NCBI GenBank assembly: GCA_027486105.1 | Contig: JAIXPV010000270.1 | Coordinates: 1 to 53,011, forward strand | DNA: 53,011 bases | From: Runella sp. | GTDB taxonomy: Bacteria; Bacteroidota; Bacteroidia; Cytophagales; Spirosomataceae | Reading direction: 5' to 3' | Shown: positions 1-52,399 of the stretch, piece by piece | Position numbering within the stretch: the first letter of the stretch is position 1 | How the letters are laid out: each line of letters starts with the position of its first letter | Position numbers and translations under genes: made by a program | The notes under the pieces: model-generated | Databases searched by the model: none | Seen by the model: the letters and a program-made list of their open reading frames with translations, nothing else | What the model was told of the DNA's origin: nothing

Positions 1-79
1 GGCCATAATTGAACATTTCGTAGGTCTAAGTTAAATGATTTTACTTATTTCTACTGTCCAGTTTTTGGGGAGCACTATA
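1..79 (-). mobile_element. Left end of an IS3-family element (second copy, cut by the window edge)
   Basis: Positions 1-79 are identical to 52321-52399, including the orfA start (CAT at 4-6) and the terminal IR. Identity stops exactly at the IR end. Confidence 0.93.
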
Positions 80-82
80 TTC

Positions 83-771
83 CTATGAAAGTGCCATTTT
101 ACACGAAAAACTATTTACCTCTTTTCGACTCTCCAGCCGCATTCCGAAAGAGAACTTCTATCGGAGGTTGAAGGAAACGCTCGACCTGACTTTCCTGTAT
201 GAGCATACAAAAGAGCTCTATGGAAAAACAGGGCACCCTTCTATTGACCCCGTAGTGTTCTTCAAATTCATGCTCATCGGGCACTTGGAGAACATTACTT
301 CTGCCAGAAAGCTGGTTGAGCATTGCTCGCTTCGGATAGATATGCTGTATTTTCTGGGCTACAACATTGATGAGCCCTTGCCCTGGCATTCCACCCAGAG
401 CCGTACCCGCCAAATTTACCTGGAAACTCTTTTTGAATTAGTATTCGATAAAGTATTCAGTCTTTGCGTAGCCAAAAATATGGTAACCGGTCGCAGGGTA
501 GCCATCGATTCTGCCCTGTTAAAGCCAATGCTTACATGGAAAGGCTATTAGACAAACAACCTGAAAGACCCGGACCCAAGCTGCTACCGCAGGCTGACGA
601 ACAGAATGGACTCATAGACTCAGTACCCAAGCCCGTAAACCATCAAGCTACGCCGTTTATTACCACTTCCGATTCTCAGCTAAGGAGGTTAGCCAAGCAC
701 CAACAAAACTTGAAACAGTCGCCGACGGCCTTAGCTTCCAACCCAAAGGCACAACTACTGAGCAACAAAAC
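83..771 (+). pseudogene. IS1182-family transposase remnant (body; frameshifted near 520, truncated near 771)
   Basis: Reads EKLFTSFRLSSRIPKENFYRRLKETLDL...GHPSIDPVVFFKFMLIGHLENITSARKLVEHC...IDS, then continues in another frame as VKANA...LLSNKT. Its first 13 codons lie at 51089-51126. Confidence 0.85.
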
Positions 772-899
772 TGTTGAAATCACGACTTATATTACCTGCG
801 ATTATTGCATTCTCACAGAGCCCTTGTTTCGAAGGCAAAGTTTCTTGTCTTTATTAATGAGTATTCCGAAATTCCTATCGGAATACTCACTTTCCCCTT

Positions 900-1391
900 T
901 TACTGTTTTTTAATTCCAATTAAATAACCGAGGTCACCTGCATCATTTACACCGAAATAGCATTTTATTTTATTCCCTGAGAAAATGGCTCTGGAATCTC
1001 CTAAAAAAGTAGCTGCTTCAATGTCGTTGTTAGAGAATGCTTTAAGGGTTAAGCTCCAATCAGTGCTATCTCTCGACAACCTACTCCCAATTCTTGAATT
1101 TGTTTTAATTACTAATTTTATTTTATCTACAGAAATCTTGCTGACTGAAATAGACGCATTGAACTCGGTTGTATCTTTTTTATACGGTAGACCATAGGTA
1201 ACGGTACCTGATTGAAATTCATTTAACAGATAGTCGCCTGTTACTTTATCAGATATATCAGGCTCAGGCTCTTTCTTGCTGCAATTGCTTAGTAAAATAA
1301 GAAAGCTGATTATGCCCCATGAGAAATGGCGCCAACAACTACTGGTTTTTGAAGTTGTATTTGTACGAGGAAACAGTTTCTGATTTGTCAT
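900..1391 (-). CDS. Putative lipoprotein (start uncertain)
   Basis: Hydrophobic stretch with lipobox-like LILLSNC followed by SKKEPEP. Last gene of the RHS cluster, overlapping the end of the YD-repeat gene. Confidence 0.6.
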   Translation of the reverse strand: MTNQKLFPRTNTTSKTSSCWRHFSWGIISFLILLSNCSKKEPEPDISDKVTGDYLLNEFQSGTVTYGLPYKKDTTEFNASISVSKISVDKIKLVIKTNSRIGSRLSRDSTDWSLTLKAFSNNDIEAATFLGDSRAIFSGNKIKCYFGVNDAGDLGYLIGIKKQ

Positions 1392-4300
1392 TTTTTACTT
1401 CTGTTAATCTTCCGAATTCATCAAATAAATAGAATGTCTTTAAATCAGTAGGGTTTGTAGTGGAAGTATTGCCGATATGTGGTTGATATGTATAGCTTAC
1501 AACCAATGATAGAGGTAATCTACTGCGAAAATCACTCATTTTAGTTCTAATATCTTGTTCATTACTAAGAGCATTGACCTGAGTAAGGCTCAGGCTCATT
1601 GCACTCAAAGCTGTTTGAACCTGAGCAAAACTTGCATTTTTTACTTCAGCAATAGGCAATGCTCCACCGTACCCCCACAAGTAAGATGTATAGGAATTGT
1701 CACGGCCTTTTACCTCGATCAAATTGCCAGTAGCATCATCGTACTTAAACGTCTGCTGATCGGTATAAACAGGGGAATTGCTGATATTACTTGGTTCATT
1801 CAGCTCAGTTTGAGCTATTTTTTCCAATATTACCCGATTATTTAAAATACCATAGGTATTTTGAGTTGCCTGCAACAATTTTTCTGCGCCATTGCCATTC
1901 TGTACTTTATCAAATTTTTCGACAACTGCGTTTTGAATATTTCTAACGCCTTTCATTTCTGCTAATGTATTGCTCGAAGTTTGATAATCAGCAGGGTAAC
2001 GGAAAGCAGTGATATATTTTATACCGTCACTATTCGTACGCGTTTGATTTTTAAGTTGTAAATGAGTGGGGTCATATTCAAATGTTTGTTCCGCTTCACT
2101 GTAATTCGTAGAGTTTGAAGCGTAGTATCTTTGTTTTACACTTTGTAAATATAGCCAATCAGTCCTTTCATTAAAATTTGTAAATGCGAAATTATCAAGT
2201 GTTGTGCTATAATTTGCATCCCATCCTTCAATCTTATACCCTACTTTAATACCAGGTACTTTCAAAGGGTTAAAAGCCGTTAAGTTATGAGTATTGATAT
2301 CCATTTCTACTTCTTGAAATCCAGAAGAACCTTCTTTTCTGTATGCTATCTTTTGTTTGGGCAACCCTCTATAAGGATCCAGTGAAGTGGATGGGCCGAA
2401 GGGAAATGAAATGCTGACATTGTCTAGTTGGAACGAAAAATCATGAACTTCTTTTCCATTTTCTCCATTCTCTCCGTGCAATACAGTTACTTTTGTATAG
2501 CATACGAAACTACCAGAAGCAGTACCTAAAGAGACATTAGAAAAGGACGTATTTGCGATATAGTTAGTGACCACACAACCCGGAATGTTAGCAGTCTGAC
2601 AAATCTTCGTTGGGTAGGAATATAAGGGGACAGAAAGAATTTTACCAGATGAAAATCCGTCTGATTCTTTGTAGAAGTATACTTTCTTTAAGGGATTAGG
2701 GTCAGAATCGCCATTAGATGTTATTATTTTTTTTATTCGTAAACCGCCAGCTTTTTTATTGGGAGAAACGTCGCCATTTGCCAGAATTTCCACTTCCTTT
2801 TCGGTGAATGTTAGAGTAAAAGTATAATTGCCTGATGAGGGACCTTTAATTCGGTAGATTCCGTCAGTAAGAAATGTCGTACAATTACTGATGTTACCAG
2901 CATAATTATTAGGTCCGTTTTCTGACCAATTACAGGTCCCAAGCACCTTGTTGCACTTTTCAATTTTTATTACAGGGCAATTGGTAATTTCATTCAGCTC
3001 GCAGCCAGGTCCGGGGTTTTGCAAATTGCAATTTTGAGTGGTTAAATTTATTTTGACAGGTATTTTTCCACTTGCGTCGTAAGATTTAATTTCAAATGAT
3101 TGTGAAGTAGTATTAAGATTTGAAACAGTAATACTTGTTGATGATGCTTTTTTAAAATAAGGCAGTGTTGGTTCTATACAGTCATGTAACTCATAATCAA
3201 AATCTGTAAATCCTCCTGTTGGATAAGTAATTCGTTTAAGCGTAAAAGTTTTTGCAGCTTCTAAGTAAGGGTCACGGTTGGCTCCCGGCATGAAAACATA
3301 ATTACCATTAGAATATCTTATCGTACGTTCCGGAATAAAGGAATAGAGTGCGTTATCTTTTCCGTTAAAGTAGCCCCAGTGGTCCTGTGCATATCTGTAA
3401 CTGTTCGCTGTTAAATTATCTGTACGGTCAAAGTAAGTAAATTGATAGGCAGGTAATGAAGATAAAACATTAACAGATTGTCCAGGAAGACCTGTTGGAG
3501 AAAAAGTGCTTTTTTGTTCTTTAACACTATTCAGCTTAAGATGAGTTAGAGAAGACTCGTAAATAAAATATTCATGATCAAGAACAAATTCACGCAATTG
3601 CTCATTTGTCGTTGTATATAATCCCACTCGTTTGAGGGTAGGGGCATTGGGAATATCAGTACGCGGAGTTATTCCATAACTGAAGTGTAGGTAGCCATTT
3701 GCAAAGTTAATTTTTGTTAGGCTGCGCATTCTTACTTTGATTTCATTGTCACAGTATGTTCTAGGTGGAGTGCCAGTAATTTGTGGTGTATCACTGTCTT
3801 TTATATATTTTGTTTCACTTCCCAATGTTTTATAAATTACCTCACTGCTTAATCCGCCATATTCAAATGTTATCTCATCCGTATGATCAGGTGAAATGAT
3901 TTTAGTTAAATACCAAGCTGAGGTATAGCTGCCTATATTGTTTACGGTTAAAGAAACTCCACTACCATTAGTGCATATGTTTCTAACCGTCTCTTCTTCA
4001 GTATGTTCAAATATATATTCTGTACCGTCTTCAGTAAGAATGGACCATCCTCCTGAACGAGGGTTCGCACCAATGGACGGTTTAACAACAAACTTATTTA
4101 AAAATCCTGAATAGATTTTCCCGGATTGATCAAAGAAAAACTTTCCAGAATAACCGCCGAAATTGAAGTAAAATATATCAGGTTGTGTGTCTATGAGACC
4201 ATCTGCAGCCTGTTTGGCATAGGCAGCATTGGTACCTACCTGATTTGTTGGATATGATCCACTAAAAAAACCAACTCCGAGCTCTTCGTCGGGACGTCCG

Positions 4301-4617
4301 CGCATAGAACGGGTTATAATGCCCCCTGCCTGTAAACTCCAGCCCAACCCTACGTTACTTGCTTTATCCTCCACTTTGACGCCTCCGGCGTGGTAAGATA
4401 ATCCTACTGCAAGGCTCAACCGTTTACTTTTGATATTGAACATCGGTACGCTTACCTGTGGTATACCAGTGTAAAGTCCAACTGGAATTTCTTCATATTT
4501 ACCTATGGAAGCCGCATTGGGGGAAGGCGGGAATACATCTGGCAAAGAAGCTGGACGCACTTGACAAACAATTTTACTGCTAAAAAAAAGCAGAATGTAT
4601 AATAATATTTTTTTCAT
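1339..4617 (-). CDS. Secreted YD-repeat/RHS-associated protein (Bacteroidetes type)
   Basis: Signal peptide; motifs PSPNAASIGKY, LSYHAGGVKV, VGLGWSLQAGG.ITR, DTQPDIFYFNF, DHWGYFNG, YPTGG.T.F.YE, GGLRIKKI, C-terminal YLFDEFGRL. Confidence 0.88.
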   Translation of the reverse strand: MKKILLYILLFFSSKIVCQVRPASLPDVFPPSPNAASIGKYEEIPVGLYTGIPQVSVPMFNIKSKRLSLAVGLSYHAGGVKVEDKASNVGLGWSLQAGGIITRSMRGRPDEELGVGFFSGSYPTNQVGTNAAYAKQAADGLIDTQPDIFYFNFGGYSGKFFFDQSGKIYSGFLNKFVVKPSIGANPRSGGWSILTEDGTEYIFEHTEEETVRNICTNGSGVSLTVNNIGSYTSAWYLTKIISPDHTDEITFEYGGLSSEVIYKTLGSETKYIKDSDTPQITGTPPRTYCDNEIKVRMRSLTKINFANGYLHFSYGITPRTDIPNAPTLKRVGLYTTTNEQLREFVLDHEYFIYESSLTHLKLNSVKEQKSTFSPTGLPGQSVNVLSSLPAYQFTYFDRTDNLTANSYRYAQDHWGYFNGKDNALYSFIPERTIRYSNGNYVFMPGANRDPYLEAAKTFTLKRITYPTGGFTDFDYELHDCIEPTLPYFKKASSTSITVSNLNTTSQSFEIKSYDASGKIPVKINLTTQNCNLQNPGPGCELNEITNCPVIKIEKCNKVLGTCNWSENGPNNYAGNISNCTTFLTDGIYRIKGPSSGNYTFTLTFTEKEVEILANGDVSPNKKAGGLRIKKIITSNGDSDPNPLKKVYFYKESDGFSSGKILSVPLYSYPTKICQTANIPGCVVTNYIANTSFSNVSLGTASGSFVCYTKVTVLHGENGENGKEVHDFSFQLDNVSISFPFGPSTSLDPYRGLPKQKIAYRKEGSSGFQEVEMDINTHNLTAFNPLKVPGIKVGYKIEGWDANYSTTLDNFAFTNFNERTDWLYLQSVKQRYYASNSTNYSEAEQTFEYDPTHLQLKNQTRTNSDGIKYITAFRYPADYQTSSNTLAEMKGVRNIQNAVVEKFDKVQNGNGAEKLLQATQNTYGILNNRVILEKIAQTELNEPSNISNSPVYTDQQTFKYDDATGNLIEVKGRDNSYTSYLWGYGGALPIAEVKNASFAQVQTALSAMSLSLTQVNALSNEQDIRTKMSDFRSRLPLSLVVSYTYQPHIGNTSTTNPTDLKTFYLFDEFGRLTEVKNDKSETVSSYKYNFKNQ

Positions 4618-4710: not shown

Positions 4711-5325
4711 TTAAATTATATTAAACATTGAGTTTGGGTTCAATGCATGAGTAACTTCAGCTTCCTTTGTAATATTTGATATAACGATTCCGCTTTCTGC
4801 AATGTTATAGATTTTATCTTGATAGCATTTTAGAATTGTGCTAATCAAATTTGATATGCTTGAATAATACATTGGTAAACTGTTTTGGTCTTGTATGATT
4901 TCCTCTGAGAAAAAATATACTGGAGAACTTTGGTTGTCCAAGTCAATAATTAAATAACTATTGTCTAAATTTGAGAATATTGGAAAAAATGAAGGTTTCC
5001 ATATTTTTCTATTTTTAATAAATGGCTTTAAAAATGTTATCCCTTTATTTGTTGATTGTGCTGCTTTTAGTGAACTTTCAAGGGATAAAAAATAAAAACC
5101 AGGAAAAAAATCCATGTCATTATAACTATACCCTTCTAACAACTTTGTTCCATTTTTCCAGTTATATAAATCCAACAGTTCTCTACTTGGTATATATTTT
5201 AATTTTTTCTCTTTAAATTTGTAAGTTAAGTCTATTCCATCTTGGAATAAATGAACTACAGGACGATTATACTCAGTAAAAATTGCGAATAATTTCTCTA
5301 AAGTTTTCTCCATGCTATTTTTCAT
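4711..5325 (-). CDS. SMI1/KNR4-family immunity protein
   Basis: Motifs PSRELLDLYNWKNG, FFPGFYFLSLE, FFPIFSNLDNSYLIIDL. Directly downstream of the RHS nuclease tip; AT-rich. Confidence 0.8.
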   Translation of the reverse strand: MKNSMEKTLEKLFAIFTEYNRPVVHLFQDGIDLTYKFKEKKLKYIPSRELLDLYNWKNGTKLLEGYSYNDMDFFPGFYFLSLESSLKAAQSTNKGITFLKPFIKNRKIWKPSFFPIFSNLDNSYLIIDLDNQSSPVYFFSEEIIQDQNSLPMYYSSISNLISTILKCYQDKIYNIAESGIVISNITKEAEVTHALNPNSMFNII

Positions 5326-5368
5326 TTTGAAATTGATTAAACTAAGAAATGATTAAGTTGATAACTTT

Positions 5369-8300
5369 CTATTTCTTAAAAATTGAACGAATGGGAACTA
5401 CTAAAAATGCATCACCTTTTTTTAAATTATAAGTTCTGTAGAACTTATTAAGCAATATTCCTTGAATACGATTCTCTATTGCCCTAACTCTCATTATATG
5501 TGCTTTCTTACCACCTTGAAATGTAGAAGCGTAGGGATACTCATCCCATTGATATCTTCTTTGTCCGGTTGGATCAGCAGGTCCTAAATTGCCATAAGCT
5601 TCTCGACGTTTTTGTGATTTTTCTGCTTCAGTAAATGCACCGTAATTTAAAATTTCATGGCCTGTTTCTAATATACCTTCTATTGTATTTACGTATATTT
5701 CAGGAGTAAGGTCTGCAGGAACAAAATATACAGGTAATTTACGCCTTGGGTTTAGTTCTGCAGGAGACACATCTGAATAAGTATTGACAATACCCCAAAC
5801 TAGTAACCAAAGAGGATTAAATTGTTTGATTCCAGTTTTGGGACCAATCAATGCTCCTGATGCTACTCTGAAATTTTTGTCATCATTATTCTCTAGTTCA
5901 GAGTCTTGTGCTTTTGGTTTTACTTCTACTGTTTGCAGATACCCTCCTTCCCTCGTCCAATTTTTTCCATCAAATAAATATATTTCACCCCCTGATGAGA
6001 TGTGTACTTGCCCTGAGTGTGGATTTTTATATAGCGATTCACATTCTGGACAAAGCCCTAAAGGGTCATTAAACAGAATAGGGTTATTATAAGCATAGTG
6101 GTAAGGAGTAAAAGAAAGTTGTGTTTTTATGCCTGATAAAGGATCAATTGCCCACCAGCGTCCAATCTCTGCATTATACATCCTAGCTCCAAAATCAAAC
6201 CATCCTGTTTCGCGTTGTTTTTCCTTGTCTGTGAAAGTAAATCTATCAACGGGACTTCCGTTTATCTTTTCAGAAGCAGGGTATAAAGGTAAAGTTAATC
6301 CCCACGCATCTGGATGATTTTCCTGAACTACTATAGGTGCGAAGGCTTCTTCCGGTCGGGTAGCTCCCTGTTTCTCAGCGCACCTGCAAGCCAGACGCAA
6401 ATTACCCAAATGGTCTTTCAGTTGATACTCAAAACGGTAAAAATTGTTTTTAACTCCATCGGTAGGATTTACAGCCCGTTGCGGAGGTAATATCCGACCT
6501 TCAGAAGTGGGAATAAATTCTAGACCATCTTGGTCATAGACCAAACCCGCTATATAGTGATTTTTCTTTCCATTTGGAAAAACTGCCAATAGCTTTTGTC
6601 CGGATCCTGTATAGGTATAATTTACCTCCTTTCCTGAAAAGGTGACTTTCTCAGGAAGATTAAGATAGTTATATTCTACTTTATCAATACCCTTACCTGA
6701 ATCTGTAATTAAGTTGCCGTTTGGATCGTAACTATAATTAGCTACACCGTCTTTAAAGAAATTCGAATTAACCCCGTTATTTCCGCCATCGGTTACACTA
6801 ACAAGTTGATTGGAAGCATTGACAATTTTGTAATTATATACTAATTGATCTACTGGACTGCCATTAAAAGACCGATTCATAGCAGTGATGTTTCCGTTAT
6901 CATCATAGGTAATTTCATCTCCTGTACCAGGAGGACCATAAAGCTTAAATATTGATGCGCCGTTTTTCTTTAATTCGGCAAATTTTAGACGATTGAGTTC
7001 ATCGTAACGGAAGTCCTGAGTATACGGATCACGTACTTCAATATCAAAGAGATCATTATTTGTGCCTTTGCGTTTGGAAGTTCGCCAATTCCATTCAATA
7101 ATATTTCCTACTTTATCATATTTGAGGCTCATACCGAAGAAATCCTTATCCGCAAAATTATTCCACAGTTGGTCTGGATTGTTAATTTTTGTCAACCAGC
7201 CCCTCATTTCATAAGTATAGCTAAGGCGTTGCAGGTAACAGCCGAGTATCTTTTCGTCCAGTTCCCCAATTGCATTGTAACTATGACGTGATACAGGTTC
7301 CCAATAACTTTCATCAATGCGCTGACAAATGGACTTTACGCGTCCGCCAACGTCATAAGCAGTACGGGTTTCAATGCGGAGATTATTTTGGGTTGAAAGT
7401 TTATTTTCAAGAACTCTGCCTGAGAAGTCAAGTTTGGAGGAACTGTAGTCGGTCCCCCCTTTATGATTTTCAGCGGCAGTTTGTATAACCCTGCCCAATT
7501 CATCATAATAGCTATTAGACATCAATGTTGTTTTTATAATATCGGTCGTAGGATTCAGTACCGAAGTACGACTTCCTGTAGGTAATCCCTGTAGGGATGT
7601 ACGAGCTGACTGCCCAAACGCTTCGGCAGCTTTAAATGCAAGAGCTCCGTTTGGATAGGTATCATAAAAATTTTCGGTCAGAAGATTTCCATCTCCGTCA
7701 GTTGTTTTTTTAACACGATTAAGCCCATCATATTCAGTCTGTGTTATTTTACCGTTTGGATCTGTGACTTTTTTTATTAAATCCCTTTCATTATATTCCA
7801 TCAGAACCGCTCCTGACGAAGGAACTTTCTTTTTAATAAGACGACCTCTGGTATCATAGTCATACGCAAAAAGAAGTTCATTATTAAAAGGTAATATGGA
7901 ACCCGTCAATGATTGGCTCGCCAATGGAGGGATTACACAACGTAACCAGCCGAAATAATCGTAGCAATAATAGGTTTTTCGACCTGCTACATTTGTACAG
8001 ACGATGCGGCCCTCTTTGTCTTTGTATTCAATCGTAATTTGGTCTTTTTCATTTTTTATTTCAACTACTGAAAGTTGATTTGATGCATAGTCACTGACTG
8101 TAACTGTCTTATCATCATAATTATACGTTAGCAACTTAACTTCCCCTGAAGTATTAGTTCGATAAGTTATTTGAACGGGAGTATTGTCTGGACCAGGAGC
8201 AGTCTGGCTTAAAATACGATTGAGTGGCGATGGCTCAAATTCAATTTGAGAGTATGCATTACCTTGTTTTTGCAGTGTAGAACTGTAAAAGGTATTTATA

Positions 8301-11300
8301 AATGAAGATAAGTTTTCACCGAGAAATTTTCCCTTGCTGGCCATATCCGTTGGCGGAGCATAGGGTAAATATTTTTTGATTTCACGGCCAAAAGCATCAT
8401 ATTCCATGTAAGAAACTATATCGCTGCTAACTGGTGCATGTATATCGTGTCCGCCTGTGGCTACAGCTATTTTCTGAATTGGTCTACCTAAACCATCCAA
8501 ATAAGTAATATTCTGTACCACAGAGGATCCTGTCTGATTTAAATGGTTATTTTCAATTATATAATTCTGATTTCCTGAGCCAAGATTACTGCTGTTTACA
8601 GGAGGGTTATCCGTATTTTTAACCCTGTCATTGGTAGTACAATCATCACACCCGCAAAGTATATCTTTGATGGTCAATTTAATATCTTTGAAACACGTAG
8701 GTTTTCCCTGCACTGAAACGGTGTAAGTATAAATACCAGTATAAAGCGGTTTCACATAAACACTGTCAGCAGTGCGAGTTCGTGTACTATCAACTGCAGT
8801 CAGACTGCTCACAAAATGCTTGAGCGTTTTGTGCTCCCAGTTAAAAATATCGGATGTGGCCAGACTCCCAGCCCGAACCGCCTTTAATTTGACAACAGTA
8901 CCCGATAAAAATTCAGTTTTATCAGGCTCCTGAACAACATTAAACGAGCAGGTCGAAAAAGGGGACAAATATTGTCCTGAAATTGGCAGTTGATTCCAGC
9001 TTCGTCCAGGGATTTGCCAACTTACCGATAAATTGTCCCCCCCAGACCCGTCTTTAACAAGTGCTTCGATATAATACTTTGTACCTTTTTTAAGTGTGAT
9101 GAGCTGAGATTTTTGCTCACTATACTGTTGGTACTGTCTTGGCGAACTCCAACTGTTATGGTAAGCTATTTTTACTTTATTGGCAGGATTATCATCGGTG
9201 CTGAGCCAAAGTTCTGTGTTATCATCAGCCGCAACATAGAATGTATACTGTCCGTTTGCGGGAGGGCATATATAGCCTCTCATCCGGGCCCCATAGTTGT
9301 CTGCAATGTCCTGTGGTGCCTCAAAACTACTGCGGAGTTCATTCACATCTGCTACCTGCGTAAATTTAGTGCTATTTTTAAGGTCATTGACAGAAGTTCC
9401 GTTGATATTATTCCAACGCTCGTATGTTATATACCCTGTTGCTGTACATTGCTGATCTACGGGCGGGTTGTATGGACAGGTTGTGGGCTCAATGAAATAT
9501 TTCTGATTATCTGATGTATGATTACTACTAAGCTGAATTTGTGCACCATCACTTTGACTGTTCCCGCTTACGTCAAAAGAAACCGTCAAATCATTTTGCG
9601 GAGAAATTCGGTAACTGTTATCCGTATTCCGAATAATTTTCCAGGCTTGGTTATAAGCAGTTCTTTCAACCCACATACGTATGCTCCCTCCACTTGATTC
9701 AATTACGCGGGTATCTTCGGCATTAATAATCTTTACATAGCCTACTGTGGCTGCTGGAGTAAACTGCCATATTTGAGCATCCATTCCGTTGAGGGTCCGC
9801 TGTTTCACTGCTACTCCGTTTACATTTCCAGTTGAATAGTCAGCATAGATTGGTTTGTTGCTGTTTTTGGGTTTAATGGTATAACATGCATTAAGAGACC
9901 CTATTACCTGAATATCTTTCGTTGGGGTGTTACAGCCAGTACAATTTGTACAAACGACACTATAGGTAGTGTTTTGAGCAGGGGTAACAGTAATCTGAGT
10001 GCCGATTGCTAAAGCTGTACCATCTCCCGTACTCCAAGCATATTGATTGGCAGGAGTAGCAGGTTTTGGTGCTGTAAATCCATCTGTTACCGATACGCCG
10101 CCATTTAAATTAGCAGTCCCTCCCGCTGGAATCATTGCAGAGGTTTGATTTCCGTTAATTGTTTCAAATCGGAAATAAGCTCTTAAATTTGCTTCGAACC
10201 CCGTTAATATTTTTCGATAATCCGTTTCAATTTCTGCTTGGGTGCGTGCTTTATTCCAGACCCTTACTTCGTCAATTTTACCTGCAAAATGGCCATAGTA
10301 ATCCCCTCCCAACGTAGCGGAAGGGTGTACCAGTTTAGAGGATGTAGGAGCCGCTGCATTTGATGGAGAAGGTTGACCATTAATATAAAGTGCAGGTTTA
10401 TTATTTTGATATACAACGGCAATATGGGTCCATCCGCTTAATGTTGCAGAGTGATTTAGCACTAATGGCATATAATTGTCCGTATGTTCAGCCAGTTGAA
10501 CCCCATTGGTACCTACAGCAATTCCCATACCTGCATTTGCTGCATTATTACTCCCTCCTCCCCAGTCTGGATACAACGCATAACGGTTACTGTAAACGTT
10601 TCCAGTTACTGTTTGTTCTGGCAGAACCCATGCTTCCCAAGTAAAATTGGTATGCAGATCTCCAAAGTTAAAATTCTGATTAAGACTTGTACTGCTACCG
10701 CCATCAAACCGCAGCCCTTTCCCCCCATTGTAAGAACCATTACCAACCGTTAAAACACTACTCTCTCCTGGTAGCAAATTAGTATTGGTTGCCGAAATAC
10801 TCAGTTCGCAAGGCTCTGGCAGCACTTTTACAGGAATATTGGCTTTACAGGTAGCATCACTTCGACTCACGGTATAGGTTATATCATGATCAGGATAAGC
10901 CACTACCACTGGGCCAGCTGCACTAAACCCATCGGGGTTCGTCCAGGAAAAGGTTACATTTAATGACCCTGGATCGTTATTGTTTCCATCGACCAGTTGA
11001 TAAGTACCTCCCAAATTAGCATAACGCCCCTGAGCGGGAGAGGGTTTGACCTGATTATTAGTTATTTCCTCAAAGCGCCAATAGGCGACTAAATTCGGTT
11101 CTTGACCAGATAAAATTTTCTCAAAATCTGCTAAGATTTGCGCTCCAGTACGTGCAGTACTCCACACCCTTACTTCATCGACTTTTCCGATGTAGCGCCC
11201 AAGGTCGTAGCCCCAATGTGCGCCCCCAATATGTGCTGTAGGATGAATATTTTTAGTGGTGGTGGCATTACTGGGATTGCTTGCCTTTGCAATCCCATTG

Positions 11301-40877: not shown

Positions 40878-40919
40878 AAACTGTACCGAAATAAGCTAGG
40901 GTTTACATCGGTACAGTTT
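40878..40919. promoter_or_regulatory. Inverted repeat, putative res site/operator
   Basis: AAACTGTACCGA-N18-TCGGTACAGTTT immediately upstream of the recombinase pseudogene. Confidence 0.5.
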
Positions 40920-41039
40920 CACTATGCCCTAAATCAAGTAGTTATGTCTGTCAAAATAAGGATTTGGTGAAATGAAATACAAGTAGGGTGGTATCTGTGT
41001 GAATCAAAGTCTGGCTTGACACAAATGAATAATGTTGAT

Positions 41040-43165: not shown

Positions 43166-43383
43166 CCATTTACAAAAAAATACATTGGTTAAAAGTCAGA
43201 GTTCGGTTGGCAGTATCTGAGGTTATACTAAGTAAATCAAGGCTTTAACTGACAAAAAGATTGAAACAACCTTGGTAAATCCAGAGATTAAAACTTTTTA
43301 TTACTAACTTTCTTGTGACTTACTTAATGAAAACTCATGTTTGGAACAATTCGTGAATTGAGGGAAACTTACCCAAGTCTTTG

Positions 43384-43427
43384 AGGGGTAACATTTCTGG
43401 AATGACCGTTGCAGAAGTGTTACCCCT
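43384..43427. promoter_or_regulatory. Inverted repeat, putative res site/operator of the resolvase
   Basis: AGGGGTAACATTTCTG-N12-CAGAAGTGTTACCCCT (1 mismatch), 16 bp before ATG 43444. Confidence 0.55.
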
Positions 43428-43443
43428 GTTGTATATTGCAGAC

Positions 43444-44127
43444 ATGAATTACATTTCATATATACGGGTAAGCACTAAAGGGCAGGAACGGAGCGGTTTA
43501 TCGTTTGAAGCTCAAAAAGCAATAATTGAACACTATGCACAAATTGACAAAGTTGAAATAGTTCGAGAGTTTATTGAAACAGAAAGCGGTAAAGACATCG
43601 AGAACCGCCCAATTCTTAAAGAGGCAATTCAATATGCATTAAAACATAGGTATATTTTAGTTGTTGCTAAGCTCGACCGCTTGAGCCGAGATGTTGAACA
43701 TATTTTTAAGATTCATAAAGAAATGGGTTCACTTTTAAAAAGTTGCGATTTGCCAACAACAGACGCGTTAACGCTATCAATATATGCTGGTATAGCCCAA
43801 AGGGAACGTGAACTGATTAGTATTCGTACTCGGCAAGCGTTACAAGCAAAAATAAGAGGTGGTGCCAAATTGGGTAAAATGTCAAATCTTACAGATAAAG
43901 GTCGAAGAGCAGGAACACTTGCACGTAGTTATAAAGCTCAAAGCAATCAAAATAATCAACGAGCAAAAGCATTTGTGCATATTTGTAGACAGAAAGGAAT
44001 GAGTCTTGCTGAAATTGCAGAGCAATTAAATAGTAATGGATTTAGTACTGCTACAGGTAAAAAATTTAAAAAAATGACAGTATCAAGAATTTTATCAGGC
44101 CTTGATATTAAGACTTTCAAACCCTAA
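43444..44127 (+). CDS. Serine recombinase (resolvase family)
   Basis: Motifs YISYIRVSTKGQ, ETESGK, AKLDRLSR, AQRERELISIRT. Confidence 0.92.
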   Translation: MNYISYIRVSTKGQERSGLSFEAQKAIIEHYAQIDKVEIVREFIETESGKDIENRPILKEAIQYALKHRYILVVAKLDRLSRDVEHIFKIHKEMGSLLKSCDLPTTDALTLSIYAGIAQRERELISIRTRQALQAKIRGGAKLGKMSNLTDKGRRAGTLARSYKAQSNQNNQRAKAFVHICRQKGMSLAEIAEQLNSNGFSTATGKKFKKMTVSRILSGLDIKTFKP

Positions 44128-44135
44128 AAAACTTA

Positions 44136-45506
44136 ATGGATTTATTAAGAATAGATGCAGGTAACAGGTTTGATGAACAATTAGATAAACTTTATAAAGA
44201 TTATCAGACTCATAATGAACCGATTGAATTTAGTTTCCGTAAAGCAGTACCGTACCTAACAAAAGCTGATATTGCCACTCATCTAATACATCCATATCCT
44301 GCAAAATTATTGACGCATATTCCCCATTTTTTCTTAAATAATGAGTTTATCTCACAAAAGGGAGACTTGGGACTTGACCCCTTTTGTGGATCAGGAACAG
44401 TTTTATTAGAATCTTTATTAGCTGGCAGGAATTGCTATGGCGCTGACGCAAATCCATTAGCACAGTTAATATCTCAAGTAAAAACATCATATTTAAATGT
44501 TGAGTTATTGAACCTACATTTATCGGAAATAAAAGAATACTACTTAAATAATGAAAATTTACATACTCCCAAAGTAGTGAATATAGATCTTTGGTTTTCA
44601 AAAAGAATCCAAAATGAACTATCCAGATTACTTGGAGCTATACGTACAATAAAAGATATCAATTATTATAATTTTTTTTTAATTTGCTTTTCAGTTTGTG
44701 TTAGGAAGGTAAGTAATGCAGATCCACGGGTGTCAGTACCTGTAAAGTTAAAACTGAATCGTTATGATAACCATCAAATTCTTAAAAATAAAGCCAGTCA
44801 AAATATTGAAGATGTTTTTAATGTTAATGTTTTAGATAAATTTTTTGAAATTGTAGGAATGAATATTAAGAGAGTAGATAATTTAAATCAATTAAATAAA
44901 TATAAAAATAAAGCTCATATTATTAGTAATGATGCTAGAAATTTGACCGAAAATTTTAATTCAACAACGCTATTACCTTCAGAAAGCATTGATTATATTA
45001 TTACATCACCACCCTATGCTGGTGCTCAAAAGTATATAAGAGCATCAAGCTTAAGTTTATGTTGGACTGAATTGATTGAGCCGATGCTTTTGAAAGAATT
45101 AAATAGTAAAAACATTGGAAGAGAAAATTACGTAAAAGCTGAATATATTGAATTCATACCTACAGGCATCATAGAAGCGGATCAAATGCTTGAAGAAATA
45201 TATAGATATTATCCATTGAGATCTCACATTGCAGGTAATTATCTCAGAGAAATGTGTATTGCTTTCACTGAGATAGCCCGTGTACTTAAAAAAGGAAAAT
45301 ATTTTGTTTTAGTAGCTGCAAATAATCAGGTTTGTGGTAGAGATTTTCCTACTCAAAATTACCTCAAAATTATAGCTCAGAAACTAGGATTTAGTGTTGA
45401 GATAGAATTGATAGATGAAATACATTCTTATGGGTTGATGACGAAAAGAAATAAAACAGCGAATGTTATTACTCGGGAATGGATTACTGTATTTAAAAAA
45501 CAATAA
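44136..45506 (+). CDS. DNA methyltransferase (amino-MTase; SPPY suggests N4-cytosine)
   Basis: HPYPAK and DPFCGSGT (motif I) precede ITSPPY (motif IV); ARVLKKGKY. Confidence 0.9.
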   Translation: MDLLRIDAGNRFDEQLDKLYKDYQTHNEPIEFSFRKAVPYLTKADIATHLIHPYPAKLLTHIPHFFLNNEFISQKGDLGLDPFCGSGTVLLESLLAGRNCYGADANPLAQLISQVKTSYLNVELLNLHLSEIKEYYLNNENLHTPKVVNIDLWFSKRIQNELSRLLGAIRTIKDINYYNFFLICFSVCVRKVSNADPRVSVPVKLKLNRYDNHQILKNKASQNIEDVFNVNVLDKFFEIVGMNIKRVDNLNQLNKYKNKAHIISNDARNLTENFNSTTLLPSESIDYIITSPPYAGAQKYIRASSLSLCWTELIEPMLLKELNSKNIGRENYVKAEYIEFIPTGIIEADQMLEEIYRYYPLRSHIAGNYLREMCIAFTEIARVLKKGKYFVLVAANNQVCGRDFPTQNYLKIIAQKLGFSVEIELIDEIHSYGLMTKRNKTANVITREWITVFKKQ

Positions 45507-45507
45507 T

Positions 45508-46503
45508 ATGATGAAAGAAGAGTTCTTAGATAAAACTTATGAAAAAATTAGGATTCTTAATGAAACTGTCTGGGAATATAAAGCAGACAAAAAAAAGATA
45601 ACTAAATGGCTCGCCAATTTCGCGGATGAAGATGAACAATTACATGCTTTGTACTTAGTATCTCAATTTATGTACTTTGGAAGTCTCCAAATGAGAGAAC
45701 TTTTAAAAGGCTTGTATAGAGATTTATATAAATACAGAATTATTGAAGAAATAAGGAAAAAAAACAGCGATACTACTGATTTAGATTTTATAAACGTATC
45801 CTTTGAAAAACTCCTAAGAAAAACACGTTTCTTAGGAGTTGGTAATCCTTCAGAGAGTGGCACACATCTTTTATATTTTTTTAGGCAAGAAAATAAATTA
45901 CCTAAGAGTCTATTTATCAATTCCAATGAAGTTATTGATAGAAAACCTGGAGAGCCTGATAAACTTCATTTCCCAGACGTAGAAGAATATATTTTTTTTG
46001 ATGATTTTTGCGGCTCCGGTACCCAAGCAATAGCATACTCTGAATCAATTTTGACTGAGATTAAATTAATAAATCCCAACGTGAAAGCATCCTACCTGAT
46101 GCTATTTGCAACTAAGACAGGAAAAAGAAATGTTATTGATAATACAAAATTTGATTATGTAGAGTCGGTTTTTGAATTAGACGAATCTTTTAAGTGTTTC
46201 GATGGTCAATCTCGATACTTTCATACAGATAATACTCCTACATTTATCAATAAAAATTTCGCTGAAAATTTTTGTGGTAATATTGGTAATTCTATGATGG
46301 AAGTTTTTTTTAAAAAAGAAGGCGTATCTCTAAGCAAAATACCAGTTTATGCCAATGACAATAAATTAGGGTTTGGAGACTGTCAACTTTTAATAGGATT
46401 TTATCATAATACGCCTGATAATACATTGCCTATTTTTTGGTGGGATGAAGAAGAACCTATTTGGTACCCTATTTTTAAACGCTATAACAAAATATATCAA
46501 TGA
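45508..46503 (+). CDS. Phosphoribosyltransferase-fold protein (conflict-system type)
   Basis: PRPP-binding loop IFFDDFCGSGTQ, SESG, LGFGDCQ, HNTPDNTLPIFW, W.PIFKR. Confidence 0.8.
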   Translation: MMKEEFLDKTYEKIRILNETVWEYKADKKKITKWLANFADEDEQLHALYLVSQFMYFGSLQMRELLKGLYRDLYKYRIIEEIRKKNSDTTDLDFINVSFEKLLRKTRFLGVGNPSESGTHLLYFFRQENKLPKSLFINSNEVIDRKPGEPDKLHFPDVEEYIFFDDFCGSGTQAIAYSESILTEIKLINPNVKASYLMLFATKTGKRNVIDNTKFDYVESVFELDESFKCFDGQSRYFHTDNTPTFINKNFAENFCGNIGNSMMEVFFKKEGVSLSKIPVYANDNKLGFGDCQLLIGFYHNTPDNTLPIFWWDEEEPIWYPIFKRYNKIYQ

Positions 46504-48497
46504 ATCAGTCCATTGCTTTTAATCCATTTAATATTACAAAGGCAGTTGATTACACAGACGCTCAAATTAACCAAGCTTGGGTAGATTTGCCGACTGAAAA
46601 TGGGAAATTTACTGATATAGTTAAGCCTACGATGTCTATGCCAATGATTATCTTGGGCGGAAAAGGGAGCGGAAAAACACATATAATGCGATATTTTTCA
46701 TATGCATTACAGAAAATAAGATATGGTGATACACTTAAGGAAGCTCTTAACAATGATAGATATATAGGTATATATATGCGTTGTGGTGGTTTAAATGCAA
46801 AACGCTTTTTAGGAAAAGGAGTTAATTCAGATCAGTGGCTACAAATATTTAGTTATTATATGGAATTATGGCTTTCCCAATTAGTTCTAGATGCATTAAT
46901 CGATATATTACCACATTTAGAAGGAGAAAATTTCTCTGAACATGAATTTGTGGATTTGTTACTAGAATTAATAGATAAACCAATTTTTTTAGAGCAAAGA
47001 ACTTTAAAAAATTTTAAATTGTTTCTAAATATTGCACAAAAAAGACTAGACTATGAAATTAACCAGCTTTCACTTTCTAGAAATAATATATCTGAAAAAA
47101 TAGAAATATTAGTTTCTCCTGGCAAACTAATATTTGGTATTCCAAAAATAATTGAAACAAAGGTGCCTTTCTTTAATAATTTCCAAATACTATATTTAAT
47201 AGATGAGTATGAAAACTTAGAAGAATACCACCAGAAATATTTTAATACCCTTATAAGAGAAAGAGAATCACCTGCTACATTTCGAGTTGGTGTAAGATTA
47301 TATGGAGTAAGAACATTTGAAACTTATAGTGCTAATGAGTCAATTAAGGAAGGTTCAGAATATGAATTATTTGACATTGATTCTTTTTTGAGGAGTAGTA
47401 ATAGGTACTCTAAATATATGGAAGACATTTGCTACAAACGTCTTGAATTGAGCGGATATTCAATTTATCGTAAAAATTTAAAAGATTATTTTGAGGAATT
47501 TTCAATTGAAAATTTAAATCATGAGTTGGCTAGCATTAACCAAAAGCATGAGTTAAATCATTTTATTAAATTAAAATCAAAGAAAAAACAAAAAAAATAT
47601 AAAGATAGTTTTATTGATGAAGTTGTAAAAAACCTGACTTTTAAAAATGATTATTTGTTAGAGCGTACAAATGTGTTCTTGTTTTATAGATCTTGGAAAG
47701 AAAATAATACTTTAAAATATTTACTTAAAGCTTCATTGGATATCAAGAAAGATTGTAGTGTATTTTATAGTAATTCTGAGATTGAAAAAACAAGACATTA
47801 TACTGTTTTAGAAAAATTTAGAAACGATTTAGTTGACCAGCTTTGTCGAGAAAACAATATTGATTTACCCTATTATGGGTTTGAAAATTTTATTGCAATG
47901 TCATCTGGGATACCCCGTGTTTTACTCAAGACGTTGAAAGAGATATTTAAGCAATCTTATTTTAATGGAGAAAAACCTTTTATTGAAGGTAAAATAAGTA
48001 AAAAATCTCAAATTAAAGGCCTCAAAATATCAACTGACTGGTTTATAGACGATGCTCCTCCAACTGGGAATAAGTTACTAAGAACTTCATTAATTAATAT
48101 CGGAGATTTTCTAAGAGAAATTAAATTTTCAGATTTACCACCAGAATGTTCTATCTCAATATTTAGTATTAATAATTCTTATATTAGTGATTCAGCAGCA
48201 TTAGTTCTAAGATTATTAACAAATTATTCTTATATTATTTTAGTTCCTGAGAGAAGAGAAAAAAATGGCAATTCAATTAATAGAACTTATCAAATAAATG
48301 GAATAATTGCTCCAAAGTGGGAGTTGTCCATAAACAGGCGAGGAGTGATTCCTCTTAACCGAGATGAAGTAGATACTATTTTCGGTGAAGCTACTGAAAA
48401 ATTTGATGAAATCATTGAGAGAAGAAGAAAAAAATATAATCATCCCCTTACTGAGAATTCTAATACACTTCCCCTTTTTGAAGATGAACTTAATTGA
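46500..48497 (+). CDS. Large P-loop ATPase (ORC/CDC6-like)
   Basis: N-terminal NPF, Walker A GGKGSGKT, Walker B YLIDEYENL, SSGIPR. ATGA overlap with the PRTase gene. Confidence 0.8.
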   Translation: MNQSIAFNPFNITKAVDYTDAQINQAWVDLPTENGKFTDIVKPTMSMPMIILGGKGSGKTHIMRYFSYALQKIRYGDTLKEALNNDRYIGIYMRCGGLNAKRFLGKGVNSDQWLQIFSYYMELWLSQLVLDALIDILPHLEGENFSEHEFVDLLLELIDKPIFLEQRTLKNFKLFLNIAQKRLDYEINQLSLSRNNISEKIEILVSPGKLIFGIPKIIETKVPFFNNFQILYLIDEYENLEEYHQKYFNTLIRERESPATFRVGVRLYGVRTFETYSANESIKEGSEYELFDIDSFLRSSNRYSKYMEDICYKRLELSGYSIYRKNLKDYFEEFSIENLNHELASINQKHELNHFIKLKSKKKQKKYKDSFIDEVVKNLTFKNDYLLERTNVFLFYRSWKENNTLKYLLKASLDIKKDCSVFYSNSEIEKTRHYTVLEKFRNDLVDQLCRENNIDLPYYGFENFIAMSSGIPRVLLKTLKEIFKQSYFNGEKPFIEGKISKKSQIKGLKISTDWFIDDAPPTGNKLLRTSLINIGDFLREIKFSDLPPECSISIFSINNSYISDSAALVLRLLTNYSYIILVPERREKNGNSINRTYQINGIIAPKWELSINRRGVIPLNRDEVDTIFGEATEKFDEIIERRRKKYNHPLTENSNTLPLFEDELN

Positions 48498-49497
48498 CTA
48501 TTCTATTTTCTATAAAAGAAAGTACTTAACACCGGACGAATTACCTAAAGACTCCTATGATGTATTTATTTCTGCATTTAATGATAGTGAACGTGTAAAA
48601 TCAGTCTTTGAAAAAGTCCAAGCTAGTAGTAAGCACTGGTTGATTTTGCCTGAATACCAATATACTCCTGCGGAGTATCCTGTAACAGGCATTATTTACA
48701 TTTCTCCAATCAATAAAACTGAAGATGAAGCTATCTTCAGTTTTATTGATTCATTAGGAATTGACTTTACTAAATCCAAAATTTGTATTGATATTACAGG
48801 GTTCGTAAGACCTCACCTGGTATATTTAGTTAGATATTTTATTGATTTGCCTATAGATAAAGTTGATTTTATATATACAGATCCAGTGACATATGTCAAA
48901 AAAGAGAATACTCCTTTTTCTGATGAATATGTAGAAGTTCGCCAAATAGCAGGATGTCAAGGATTACATAATCCTGAAACATCTAATGACTTTCTTATTA
49001 TTGGCTCAGGTTATGATAATAGACGTATTAGTGACATTGCAAAACATAAAGATAAAACGATCAAAGTTCAGGTTTTTGGTTTTCCATCTTTGCAACCAGA
49101 TATGTACCAGGAAAATATTCTTAAAGCATATCTTGCAGAAGAAGCCTCTGCTGATGGAAGGCAATCCTTAATAGATCCTGATTATACAATTTTTGCTCCT
49201 GCAAATGATCCGTTTATCACAGCTAATCTATTGCAAAGCTTTATTTCTAAAGAGAACATAAAGCAACAAATTACAAATCTTTATCTTTCACCAATGGCGA
49301 CTAAAGCTCAAACTTTAGGCTTTGCTTTATTTTATGTTACTGAATGTTTAGAATATCCAGTAAGTATGATATTTCCCTTTTGCAATCATTATTCTAGAGA
49401 AACTACAAAAGGGATTTCTAAAATATGGAAGTATACTCTGGAGTTTAATGAGCTGAGAAAGGCTCAGTTTAAAAAAAATAGTTGCTTTGTAATTTGA
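48484..49497 (+). CDS. Uncharacterised alpha/beta protein, possibly tandem CARF-like Rossmann folds
   Basis: Motifs ICIDITGF, FIYTDPVTY, LIIGSGYD, YLSPMATKAQTLG. ATG 48484 overlaps the ATPase end by 14 nt. The fold call is inference. Confidence 0.65.
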   Translation: MNLIDYSIFYKRKYLTPDELPKDSYDVFISAFNDSERVKSVFEKVQASSKHWLILPEYQYTPAEYPVTGIIYISPINKTEDEAIFSFIDSLGIDFTKSKICIDITGFVRPHLVYLVRYFIDLPIDKVDFIYTDPVTYVKKENTPFSDEYVEVRQIAGCQGLHNPETSNDFLIIGSGYDNRRISDIAKHKDKTIKVQVFGFPSLQPDMYQENILKAYLAEEASADGRQSLIDPDYTIFAPANDPFITANLLQSFISKENIKQQITNLYLSPMATKAQTLGFALFYVTECLEYPVSMIFPFCNHYSRETTKGISKIWKYTLEFNELRKAQFKKNSCFVI

Positions 49498-49525
49498 TAA
49501 AATGCTTGAGTACTAATTCATAGTT

Positions 49526-50749
49526 ATGAGTAATACAAATCAATCAATTACTATTTTTATTTCCTATTGTCATAGGGACAAATCAATAGCAGAAAAAATA
49601 GATAAAGATTTAAACCGAATAGGAATAAGCATTATAAGAGATTATCATGAATTGAAATATACAGACAGTATTAGTGAATTTATGCATAAAATTCGCAGAG
49701 CTGACTTTGCTTTATTGCTTATTAGTGATGATTATTTAAAATCGAAAAACTGCCTTTATGAGGTTGGACAACTTTTAAAGGAAGAGAATGTATGGAAAAA
49801 AATTCTACCCGTTATAGCAGATAAAACTAATATTTACGATGCGGCCAGTAGAATTTACTACATTAAATATTGGCAAGATCAAGAAAAAAAGCTAAAGAAT
49901 TTATTGTCAGATGTAGATATTATAAATGCACTACCCTCTTTTAATGAATTAAAAACTATTGGTACGTATGCTGGGTTTATTGATGAATTTTTGTCTAAAA
50001 TTGTAGATATGTTGCACGTTGACTTTCAGACATTAGTTGAGAATCAATATAGACCTTTATTTAGTAAAATAGGCGTCGATGATATTACTTATTTGGTTGA
50101 ATTAATAAATATATCTAAGATTGATAATCTAAGAATTAAGGATATTGCTTTAGAAGAATATCAAAATAAATTTGGAGTAAATACTTATTTGTTTTGTATG
50201 AAAGGTAAATTAGAAAGTGATTTGGGTAGGATAGATAAAGCTAGATATTATTATAATAAATCTCTTGAGTATGATTCTAATAACACAGATGCTTTAAACA
50301 ATTTAGGGTTTTTGTTTCATTATTTTTTTAATGATTTAGTTGAAGCGGAAAAATTATATAAAAAAGCTTTAAATATTAACCCTGATTTTATTACTACATT
50401 ATTAAATTTAGGAGTATTGTATAGAAACACGGAAAGAGTTGATTTAGCAATTATTTGTTTTAAAAAGGTTTTAAAATTAGATTCCACTAATTGTAAAGCT
50501 CACCAAAATCTCGCAAATATATATAGTATTGAAAAACTTGACCTTGAGAAGGCTGAAATGCACTATAAAAAGGCTATGAAATACGATTCAACTAATATTG
50601 AAGTGTTAATATGGTACGCTAATTTTTTAAAAGTTCATAGAAAGAAAATAGAAGAGGGTAATAGACTTTATAAGAAAGCCAAATCATACGATAAAGCAGG
50701 AAAGTACACTACGTTCATTGATACTATGTTAAAATCACATAAAGGCTAA
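49526..50749 (+). CDS. TIR domain plus TPR-repeat protein
   Basis: IFISYCHRD, LLISDDYLKSKNCLYEV (catalytic Glu position), and about 5 TPRs (ALNNLG, LLNLGVLY, AHQNLA). Confidence 0.88.
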   Translation: MSNTNQSITIFISYCHRDKSIAEKIDKDLNRIGISIIRDYHELKYTDSISEFMHKIRRADFALLLISDDYLKSKNCLYEVGQLLKEENVWKKILPVIADKTNIYDAASRIYYIKYWQDQEKKLKNLLSDVDIINALPSFNELKTIGTYAGFIDEFLSKIVDMLHVDFQTLVENQYRPLFSKIGVDDITYLVELINISKIDNLRIKDIALEEYQNKFGVNTYLFCMKGKLESDLGRIDKARYYYNKSLEYDSNNTDALNNLGFLFHYFFNDLVEAEKLYKKALNINPDFITTLLNLGVLYRNTERVDLAIICFKKVLKLDSTNCKAHQNLANIYSIEKLDLEKAEMHYKKAMKYDSTNIEVLIWYANFLKVHRKKIEEGNRLYKKAKSYDKAGKYTTFIDTMLKSHKG

Positions 50750-51021
50750 ATAAGATCAAATATAACTGAAGACTTATTTAACTACAACTTATTATCGTTA
50801 TGTTTTACCTTTATTTGATTAATTAAATTTATTCTCTTTGTGGCCGTTTAAAAACGAGCGTTCGTAAAATGCCACAAAAGCGGTAAACGCCTGAAAAATG
50901 TCTCAGTAACTCGTACAAAAACACAAAACCGAACTCTAATAATTGAGATAATGAAATGAGACATTTCTGAAGGATTATTCAGAGGTGTTTTCGGGATTGG
51001 CTCTGGTCTCACAGAACCCCC

Positions 51022-51126
51022 GTGGCTGTTGCACAACTCTAACTATACCAAAAGCGGCTGAACAGGTAGAGTTTTTGTATCTTTAGCTATGCAAGGCAAA
51101 AAATACGAACGCGAAAATGTAAATTC
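51022..51126 (+). mobile_element. Left end and first codons of the IS1182-family element interrupted by IS3
   Basis: Putative IR GTGGCTGTTGCACAAC at 51022. ATG 51089 reads MQGKKYERENVN and joins in frame with position 83 onward. Confidence 0.72.
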
Positions 51127-52399
51127 TACTGTGCTCCCCAATTGTTGGACAGTTTTGGGGCTAAATTAAGATGGAACTAACCATCCTATTAATTGTACTT
51201 TTTTTCTAACGGATATACCATTGAGCTGGCGTTTGATAATCCAACGATTGATGTTTCCGCTGGTAATTATACATTTCAAAATACTTAGTCAAGCCTCGGT
51301 GTAATGTCAATCCGTCAGAGTAAGCATGTAAATATACATGTTCATATTTAACTGTGCGCCATAACCGTTCCACAAAAATATTATCCAGAGCGCGTCCCTT
51401 AGAGTCCATACTGATCTGTATTTCAGCAGCTTTTAAGGGAGCCAGAAAGCGCGGGCTCGTAAACTGACTTCCTTGATCCGTATTAAATATTCGGGGTTTC
51501 CCCCATCGGTCAAGTGCTTCCTGTAAGGCATCAATACAGAAATCGACCAGTAGCGTGTTCGACAGCCGCCAGCTTAGAACAAATCTGCTGTACCAGTCAA
51601 TAACTGCGCATAGATATAGAAATCCGGTAGCCATCGGAATGTAGGTTATATCTGTTGACCAAACATGGTTTCTGGCTTCAATGGAAATGTTCCGCAGCAG
51701 ATAAGGATAAATTTGATGTCCTTCCATCGGTTTAGATAAGTTAGGCTTAGGATAAACGGCTTCTAATCCCATTAAACGCATCAAACGACGTATTCGCTTA
51801 ACATTTAAAGGCTTATCCACACTTGTTAACTCTTGATGCATTCGTCGGACACCCAGTTCTGGCCGGTCAGTAAAGAATTTATCGATTCGTGCCATTAACG
51901 CCAGATTTTCAGTTGATTCTCCAATGGGTTGATAGTAATAAGTAGAACGGGACAGACTCAACAATTCACATTGTTGGTAAATACTTAATTGGGCATGAGC
52001 CGGGTCAATTAAACGTCGCCGATTACCTACTAATTCGTCCGTAATTTTTTTTTGAGGTAATCGTTTTCCACCTTTAGCTGACCAATCTGTTGAAATAAGG
52101 GGGCTTCTATTTCTTCCCGATCTTGGGCAGACAAGCCCGAAGTTGTTTGACCGTTGAATAGCGTTGGCAGTCCTTCCAAGACCTGCTGTTTCCAGCTGGT
52201 AATTTGGGTGGCATGGATGCCATAGTCGCTGCTGAGCTGGGCAAGTGTTTTGTGCCCTTTGAGAGCTTCCAGCACTACTTTGATCTTGAATTGTGCGTCG
52301 TGAACGCGGCGAGTTGATTTGGCCATAATTGAACATTTCGTAGGTCTAAGTTAAATGATTTTACTTATTTCTACTGTCCAGTTTTTGGGGAGCACTATA
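51127..52399 (-). mobile_element. Complete IS3-family insertion sequence (1273 bp)
   Basis: Imperfect IRs TACTGTGCTCCCCAATTGTTGGACAG and TATAGTGCTCCCCAAAAACTGGACAG; orfA/orfB arrangement. Confidence 0.93.
51206..52326 (-). CDS. IS3 transposase OrfAB (orfA 52030-52326; -1 frameshift into orfB)
   Basis: OrfA HTH/leucine zipper; A9 slippery run at 52045-52053; DDE motifs WSTDITY, FNTDQGSQF, DNIFVERLWRTVKYE. Confidence 0.93.

Follow-up and report, generated by a model that had tools for sequence, protein, structure and literature searches.

A near-complete Runella plasmid with nested insertion sequences, whose contig-edge junctions resemble a cointegrate but probably reflect an assembly join

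The subject of this study is a plasmid that carries an IS3-family insertion sequence (IS) and lies in a 53,011-nucleotide stretch of DNA (the window), which is the whole of contig C572 of a Runella metagenome-assembled genome (MAG; G000), with no sequence beyond either edge. No earlier description of this plasmid was among the papers listed by literature searches. The best named relative of its replication protein lies on a 36-kb circular plasmid, pSLIN03 of Spirosoma linguale DSM 74 (CP001772.1, 36,434 bp), where RepA is 86.7% identical and a 323-amino-acid (aa) open reading frame (ORF), repA, a 99-aa ORF and a ParA-type gene stand in the same order and strand as in the window, with a related iteron-like region. 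pSLIN03 also carries an 80 to 82% identical IS3 element (10136-13632), but that copy, unlike the one in the window, contains an inserted reverse-transcriptase gene, and its flanks do not match. The plasmid pSLIN03 is typed as non-mobilizable and differs from our plasmid in having unrelated cargo and a host of another genus.

Three further systems bear on how such a plasmid may relate to a chromosome. For F and the formation of Hfr strains, PMC7690428 describes what probably also applies here, a plasmid and a chromosome that share an IS, which would permit RecA-dependent integration and excision. Unlike for F, integration here is a hypothesis, and chromosome transfer is not predicted, since no relaxase or type IV secretion Pfam family was found among the 39 of 70 listed ORFs that were scanned (at least 80 aa; best five families per protein); an Hfr-type integrated conjugative plasmid was rejected as a candidate for the same reason. 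The IS2-like megacircle of Burkholderia thailandensis E264, as presented in PMC6350997, likewise combines polymorphic toxin-immunity cargo with an element of the IS3 family and a circular form that has a single IS, but it is described as a transposase-dependent chromosomal composite transposon with a proven two-IS form, whereas the circle in the window has its own replicon and a two-IS form that is hypothetical. The cointegrates and translocatable units of IS26, in the account of PMC4471558, have the target duplication outside and the donor flanks inside, as does the path written out in our contig; IS26, however, is an IS6-family element reported there to fuse replicons as its normal product, while the element in the window belongs to the IS3 family.

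We find that the window holds a real, near-complete Runella plasmid in which IS insertions are nested and whose replicon belongs to a known type. In our reading, to which we give a probability of roughly 80%, it is a free circle with one IS3 copy, made up of bases 80-52399 and 52,320 bp long as given by the spacing of the repeated IS end, and a separate, probably chromosomal copy of the same element was joined to it by the assembler. The preliminary description of this DNA had proposed a once-circular plasmid that received an IS3-family copy at TTC and then fused with another replicon through the IS. The first of these steps is supported here. The fusion is not, because the four junctions could equally come from two simple insertions and because in one sequencing run the GTA site is empty while the second copy sits at GTC; the caveat given at the time, that an assembly join through the repeat would look the same, is the more likely reading.

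The replication and partition genes announced in that description were all recovered, and the backbone reads as follows.

20642 to 21571, minus strand: RepA of the RepA_C family (PF04796, E=1.2e-16)
20496 to 20625, no strand: iteron-like repeats, with direct 11-mers at 20496, 20519 and 20543 and an inverted one at 20615
21568 to 22660, minus strand: partition module of a 100-aa ORF, a ParA-like ATPase (21919-22584) and repeats with a 12-bp period
19303 to 20283, minus strand: primase-like gene, with CHC2 zinc finger and DnaG matches that are weak and both under the curated cut-offs

RepA is the sole RepA_C match in the MAG. The iteron-like repeats sit just beyond the repA stop, in a region that is 71 to 78% alike in pSLIN03 and two genomes of the family, and the 12-bp-period repeats (21870-21940 and 22600-22660) lie around the ParA-like gene, whose product matches ParA with E=2.7e-40 and 138 bits, under the cut-off of 180. 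An initiator, nearby repeats and a partition ATPase, the three parts by which we recognize a RepA_C/ParA plasmid, are thus all present, and the gene order of the partition module matches that of pSLIN03. A relative of RepA was present in 20 of 200 genomes of the family, and the six closest ones with retrieved contigs were on contigs of 19 to 68 kb. Among five near-complete relatives RepA_C was never on contig C1; it was found on C4 of G016 and C3 of G024, and three had none. Judged by its replication and partition genes and their pSLIN03-like order, the interval is a plasmid. No whole related plasmid was found for 18200-38199 in 19 genomes of the genus, where only cargo blocks matched, or for 17800-23500 in PLSDB, and viral contigs held neither a RepA relative nor an end of the IS. 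C572 is the longest of the 788 contigs of the MAG, which is 84% complete, has an N50 of 9.5 kb and includes only contigs of at least 2.5 kb. Its G+C content of 39.1%, compared with a mean of 44.9%, is the second lowest among the 181 contigs of at least 10 kb, and its tetranucleotide use is the second most distant in the same set.

Part of the region 43100-53011 was found in 20 runs from 10 studies, and four of them (X1, X2, X6 and X7) were compared over 34652-53011 as Logan short-read contigs. A further run, X12 (share 0.20), was a candidate for having the IS and the GTA flank but no plasmid. The IS and its junctions in the window, with their counterparts in these runs, are listed below.

51127 to 52399, minus strand: complete IS3-family element of 1273 bp (NCBIfam IS3, NF033516, 263 bits against a cut-off of 160; Pfam)
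52030 to 52326, minus strand: orfA, from frame analysis
ending at 51206, minus strand: orfB in the -1 frame, from frame analysis
1 to 79, minus strand: stub of the IS3 end upstream of orfA, 100% identical to 52321-52399 and starting at the first base of C572
80 to 82, plus strand: TTC, copy of the target duplication at the plasmid site; the IS-to-TTC junction is also in X1 and X2 contigs
51124 to 51126, plus strand: TTC, the other copy of the duplication; the TTC-to-IS junction is in X1 and X2
52400 to 52402, plus strand: GTA, the triplet duplicated at another insertion site; X2 has a GTA-to-IS entry, and the empty allele in X1 has GTA once
52403 to 53011, plus strand: sequence next to this other insertion site, containing the 5' part of an Rpn-like gene (TIGR01784, E=3.6e-5, under the cut-off)

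The element has the helix-turn-helix domain in orfA and the DDE core in orfB of its family (HTH_Tnp_1, HTH_21, rve and rve_3 in Pfam), and frameshifting is predicted from a slippery A9 run at 52045-52053 in the overlap of the two frames. Its terminal inverted repeats are alike at 21 of 27 positions. Termini of the form 5'-TG...CA-3' are typical of the IS3 family but not universal, and here both ends start with TA, as in relatives of the element in L011, L015, L023 and L024. IS3-family elements duplicate 3 to 4 bp of their target, and we found a 3-bp duplication at both GTA and GTC, sites that are each known in an occupied and in an empty form. The tail past GTA has DNA matches of 85 to 89% on contigs of 7.43 Mb and 805 kb in relatives, and from these matches 52403-53011 is probably chromosomal. 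The flank upstream of the GTA site is absent from the MAG, and that side is known from X1 and X2. The MAG contained no further copy or end of the IS, and five loci with an IS end in JGI metagenomes included none with the flanks seen in the window.

The flank letters had been read correctly in the preliminary description. In X1, which was flagged as a possible source, the IS is a single contig of 1275 nt with a depth of 52.4, next to neighbours of 17.9 to 28.8; it is entered from TTC and GTC and left by TTC and GTC, while a 16,070-nt contig (depth 22.5) runs unbroken over the GTA site with one GTA, the empty allele. The GTC site is in turn empty in the MAG (C375:14808-14810), where it lies among housekeeping genes. 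The LpxB of C375 groups with named Runella proteins, which places the host in this genus. A 20,453-nt Logan contig, of the same size as the IS-GTC contig of X1, encodes exact copies of two C375 proteins, which indicates that the MAG and X1 are of one host lineage. X2 has TTC-IS, IS-TTC and a GTA-ending flank before the IS, the last as had been predicted, and the IS there has a depth of 8.5, compared with about 5.8 on the plasmid and 4.2 on the tail. The IS is a collapsed repeat with three target sites: TTC is occupied in X1 and X2, the two runs with the IS, GTA is occupied in X2 and empty in X1, and GTC is occupied in X1 and empty in the MAG. As TTC is constant while the filling of GTA and GTC varies, the junctions between plasmid and IS persist while the partner site changes.

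The direct-repeat ends reported for the IS are real to the extent that 1-79 equals 52321-52399 and that the whole element lies at 51127-52399, but there is no second whole copy on the left, only 79 nt at the start of the contig. Where a cointegrate would have two whole direct copies, the window has one and an edge stub. An exact match elsewhere of at least 25 nt was found for 200 of the 1576 contig ends; none of these terminal matches was longer than 119 nt, 56 ends had exactly 119, and there was a local peak at 79 with six ends, compared with one each at 77, 78 and 80. This pattern fits a multi-k short-read assembler, and the k list of MEGAHIT includes 79, 99 and 119. Positions 1-79 are most likely a graph overlap and not a second IS copy. 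The stub shows reads joining the IS end to TTC and is not proof of a second physical copy.

An IS1182 transposase gene is split between the two ends of the interval.

51089 to 51117, plus strand: 5' end of the IS1182 transposase gene (ATG at 51089), ending in a copy of a 6-bp duplication at 51112-51117
51118 to 51126, plus strand: left 9 bp of a 30-bp insert, of which the last three bases are a TTC copy
83 to 103, plus strand: right part of the 30-bp insert (TGT..ACA ends), which interrupts the IS1182 gene
104 to 772, plus strand: IS1182 transposase pseudogene, residues about 9 to 231 of 509, starting with the other 6-bp copy at 104-109

Read in its two frames, the pseudogene is 93% and 85% identical to P0001, with a frameshift near 515-524, and its match stops at residue 231 of 509. 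NCBIfam IS1182 gives E=1e-31 and 110 bits against a cut-off of 270, so that the fragment falls short of the full transposase of about 500 aa; it had no DNA match in the 19 genomes of the genus. The preliminary description had found that joining 51126 to 83 restores one reading frame. The frames of the two pieces are indeed compatible, and the piece from 83 on is part of an IS1182 transposase, but the ancestral gene is not restored: from the start methionine to a conserved phenylalanine there are 12 residues in 91 of 120 homologues (29 fell outside the pattern) and 24 in the joined pieces. A 6-bp direct repeat and the 30-bp insert account for the 36 extra bases, and the IS3 sits inside the insert. 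By this comparison of homologues the restored frame is a coincidence of length. The continuation of both the gene and the 6-bp duplication across the join makes a stronger case that 51126 and 80 once adjoined. A parent of the insert was sought without success in 150 genomes of the family, with one match, inside a coding gene, and in GTDB contigs, with 12 exact 19-mer matches that had no further flank in common. Multi-copy matches in G395 and G362 were rejected as they were inner parts of other repeats, and the IS21 ends of pSLIN03 did not match. G395 and G362 each have a short non-coding repeat, in 9 and 13 copies, respectively, that is unrelated to the plasmid.

These nested remnants suggest an order of events. 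The IS1182 would have come into the plasmid first, and an element with TGT..ACA ends would then have inserted with a 6-bp duplication, surviving as 30 bp, before IS3 entered this remnant and duplicated TTC. IS3-family elements are described as moving by copy-out/paste-in, which leaves a single new copy flanked by a target duplication (PMC7780238, PMC11708052). By this route the IS would have reached a second site, GTA in the population of this genome and GTC in that of X1. Short reads would have been shorter than the 1273-bp repeat, leading the assembler to collapse the copies; it would then have entered the IS from the plasmid and left by the GTA flank, keeping the IS-TTC link only as the 79-nt stub.

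The alternative that weighs most is a true cointegrate in the source population, GTA-IS-TTC...plasmid...TTC-IS-GTA, formed by RecA recombination between the plasmid copy and a chromosomal one, or by transposase-led fusion as in the Burkholderia megacircle (PMC6350997), and able to excise. The contig path has exactly this flank pattern, with TTC inside and GTA outside, and a GTA-ending flank does precede the left end of the IS in X2. A collapsed repeat gives the same picture, since two simple insertions provide four junctions, the same four that a cointegrate has (the logic is that of PMC4471558), and either pairing of them can be written out. What favours the simple insertions is X1, where the plasmid junctions are present while GTA is empty and the second copy is at GTC: a fusion at GTA is not needed to account for them, and cointegrates in both populations would take two separate fusions. 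The left copy, moreover, is a stub of a size seen elsewhere in the assembly, the replicon and partition genes are intact, and RepA_C lies off C1 in the near-complete relatives that have it. On the other side, IS-mediated RecA-dependent integration is presented as established for F in PMC7690428. We consider a dominant cointegrate unlikely, although any plasmid that has an IS in common with the chromosome can be expected to be integrated in a rare subpopulation.

Several observations count against the free circle. Read depth, proposed earlier as a check, was similar on the plasmid and on putative chromosomal contigs, both in X1 (17.9 to 28.8 against 22.5 and 26.7) and in X2 (about 5.8 against 4.2), and an integrated copy would give the same; depth fits either form and did not separate them, with 33% G+C in the 17.9 contig of X1 compared with 44% in the 28.8 contig. 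None of the reads or contigs seen in any run reaches through the IS into unique sequence at each end, the IS is present in only two of the four runs compared (X1 and X2), and the IS-GTA exit is not among the X2 pieces listed, next to which X2 has 26 further pieces and two loose ends. No empty TTC allele was seen, and that TTC is a true duplication is inferred from the GTA and GTC sites. Elsewhere, three assembled copies of this type of IS that show both their ends, on the finished pSLIN03 (ATG/GTT), in L024 and in G018, lack matching 3-bp flanks, meaning that rearrangement at these elements does occur. A variant of the free circle takes up the question of TTC: the IS3 would have entered a longer TGT..ACA element whose interior was lost by adjacent deletion or IS3-IS3 recombination, leaving 9 bp and 24 bp, and the matching triplets would not be a duplication. 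Thirty base pairs is very short for an element, and PMC11708052 reports adjacent deletions by IS3-family elements as common in evolved Escherichia coli (14 of 83 events); those 14, however, left no duplication according to the same source, a chance 3-bp match has odds of about 1 in 64, and this IS makes a 3-bp duplication at GTA and GTC. We find this variant very improbable and retain the free circle with a TTC duplication.

The cargo lies on both sides of the backbone and comprises a large toxin locus, together with secreted proteins, recombinases and defence genes.

4711 to 15445, minus strand: RHS protein of 3358 aa with a C-terminal NucA/NucB nuclease domain, then an SMI1/KNR4 immunity-type gene (Pfam; NCBIfam Rhs core)
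22736 to 31319, minus strand: Mpi-family serine recombinase, truncated type IIG restriction-modification gene, AlbA_2/RecG-like ATPase and PLD-SNF2 helicase (domain searches)
43233 to 50879, plus strand: resolvase, DNA methylase, PRTase-CE, ORC-CDC6-like ATPase, CARF-like protein and TIR-TPR protein (domains; limits from loose ends in X2, X6 and X7)

The RHS protein also has lectin-like and Ig-like domains, and a 1092-aa ORF within 1339-4617 had no Pfam or NCBIfam match; together, 4711-15445 and 1339-4617 are predicted to form a plasmid-borne polymorphic toxin locus for bacterial competition. The type IIG gene (23476-26313, minus strand) stops early beside the Mpi-family invertase gene, and a segment of about 95 bp at 23412-23508, bounded by 5-bp inverted repeats (23412-23416 and 23504-23508), looks on inspection by eye like the natural continuation of the gene, placed on the other strand. 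Another IS remnant is found at 17800-18170, which matches ISL3-type transposase regions on Runella rosea plasmids at 88 to 89%.

The module at 43233-50879 is all that X6 and X7 hold. It is nearly identical elsewhere, on an 11,900-nt contig in X6, with a different flank upstream of 43233 in X2 and X6 and a divergence of X6 and X7 at 50878-50879, and has the look of a mobile defence cassette. A possible recombination site is an inverted repeat near 50890-50970, noted by eye. Positions 47583-47584 are TT in all four runs and AA in the window (K362 of the ATPase in place of L), and 37026 is G in X1 and X2, unlike in the window; both differences probably stem from errors in the consensus of an assembly made at low depth, or are private variants. 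The path of the plasmid in X1 forks at 40245-40654, with a 93-nt match to another contig and a 50-nt piece of depth 63.5, and past the fork the depth drops from 28.8 to 17.9, which could be due to G+C bias or to a variant without 40.6-51.1 kb.

In conclusion, a cointegrate, if true and dominant, would be a field example of IS3-mediated fusion of plasmid and chromosome in Cytophagales, and would add a new host to a process that is already known. It is a long shot, but the finding could also point to a non-conjugative toxin-and-defence plasmid that shuttles between circle and chromosome through IS3, docking at sites of sibling IS copies, GTA in one wild population and GTC in another, as a self-replicating counterpart of the Burkholderia megacircle. 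If the free circle is correct, the value of the finding is modest: it would be a worked case of exchanged target duplications at a contig edge that mimic a cointegrate, and would give Runella a near-complete plasmid with an RHS toxin-immunity locus and several defence genes.

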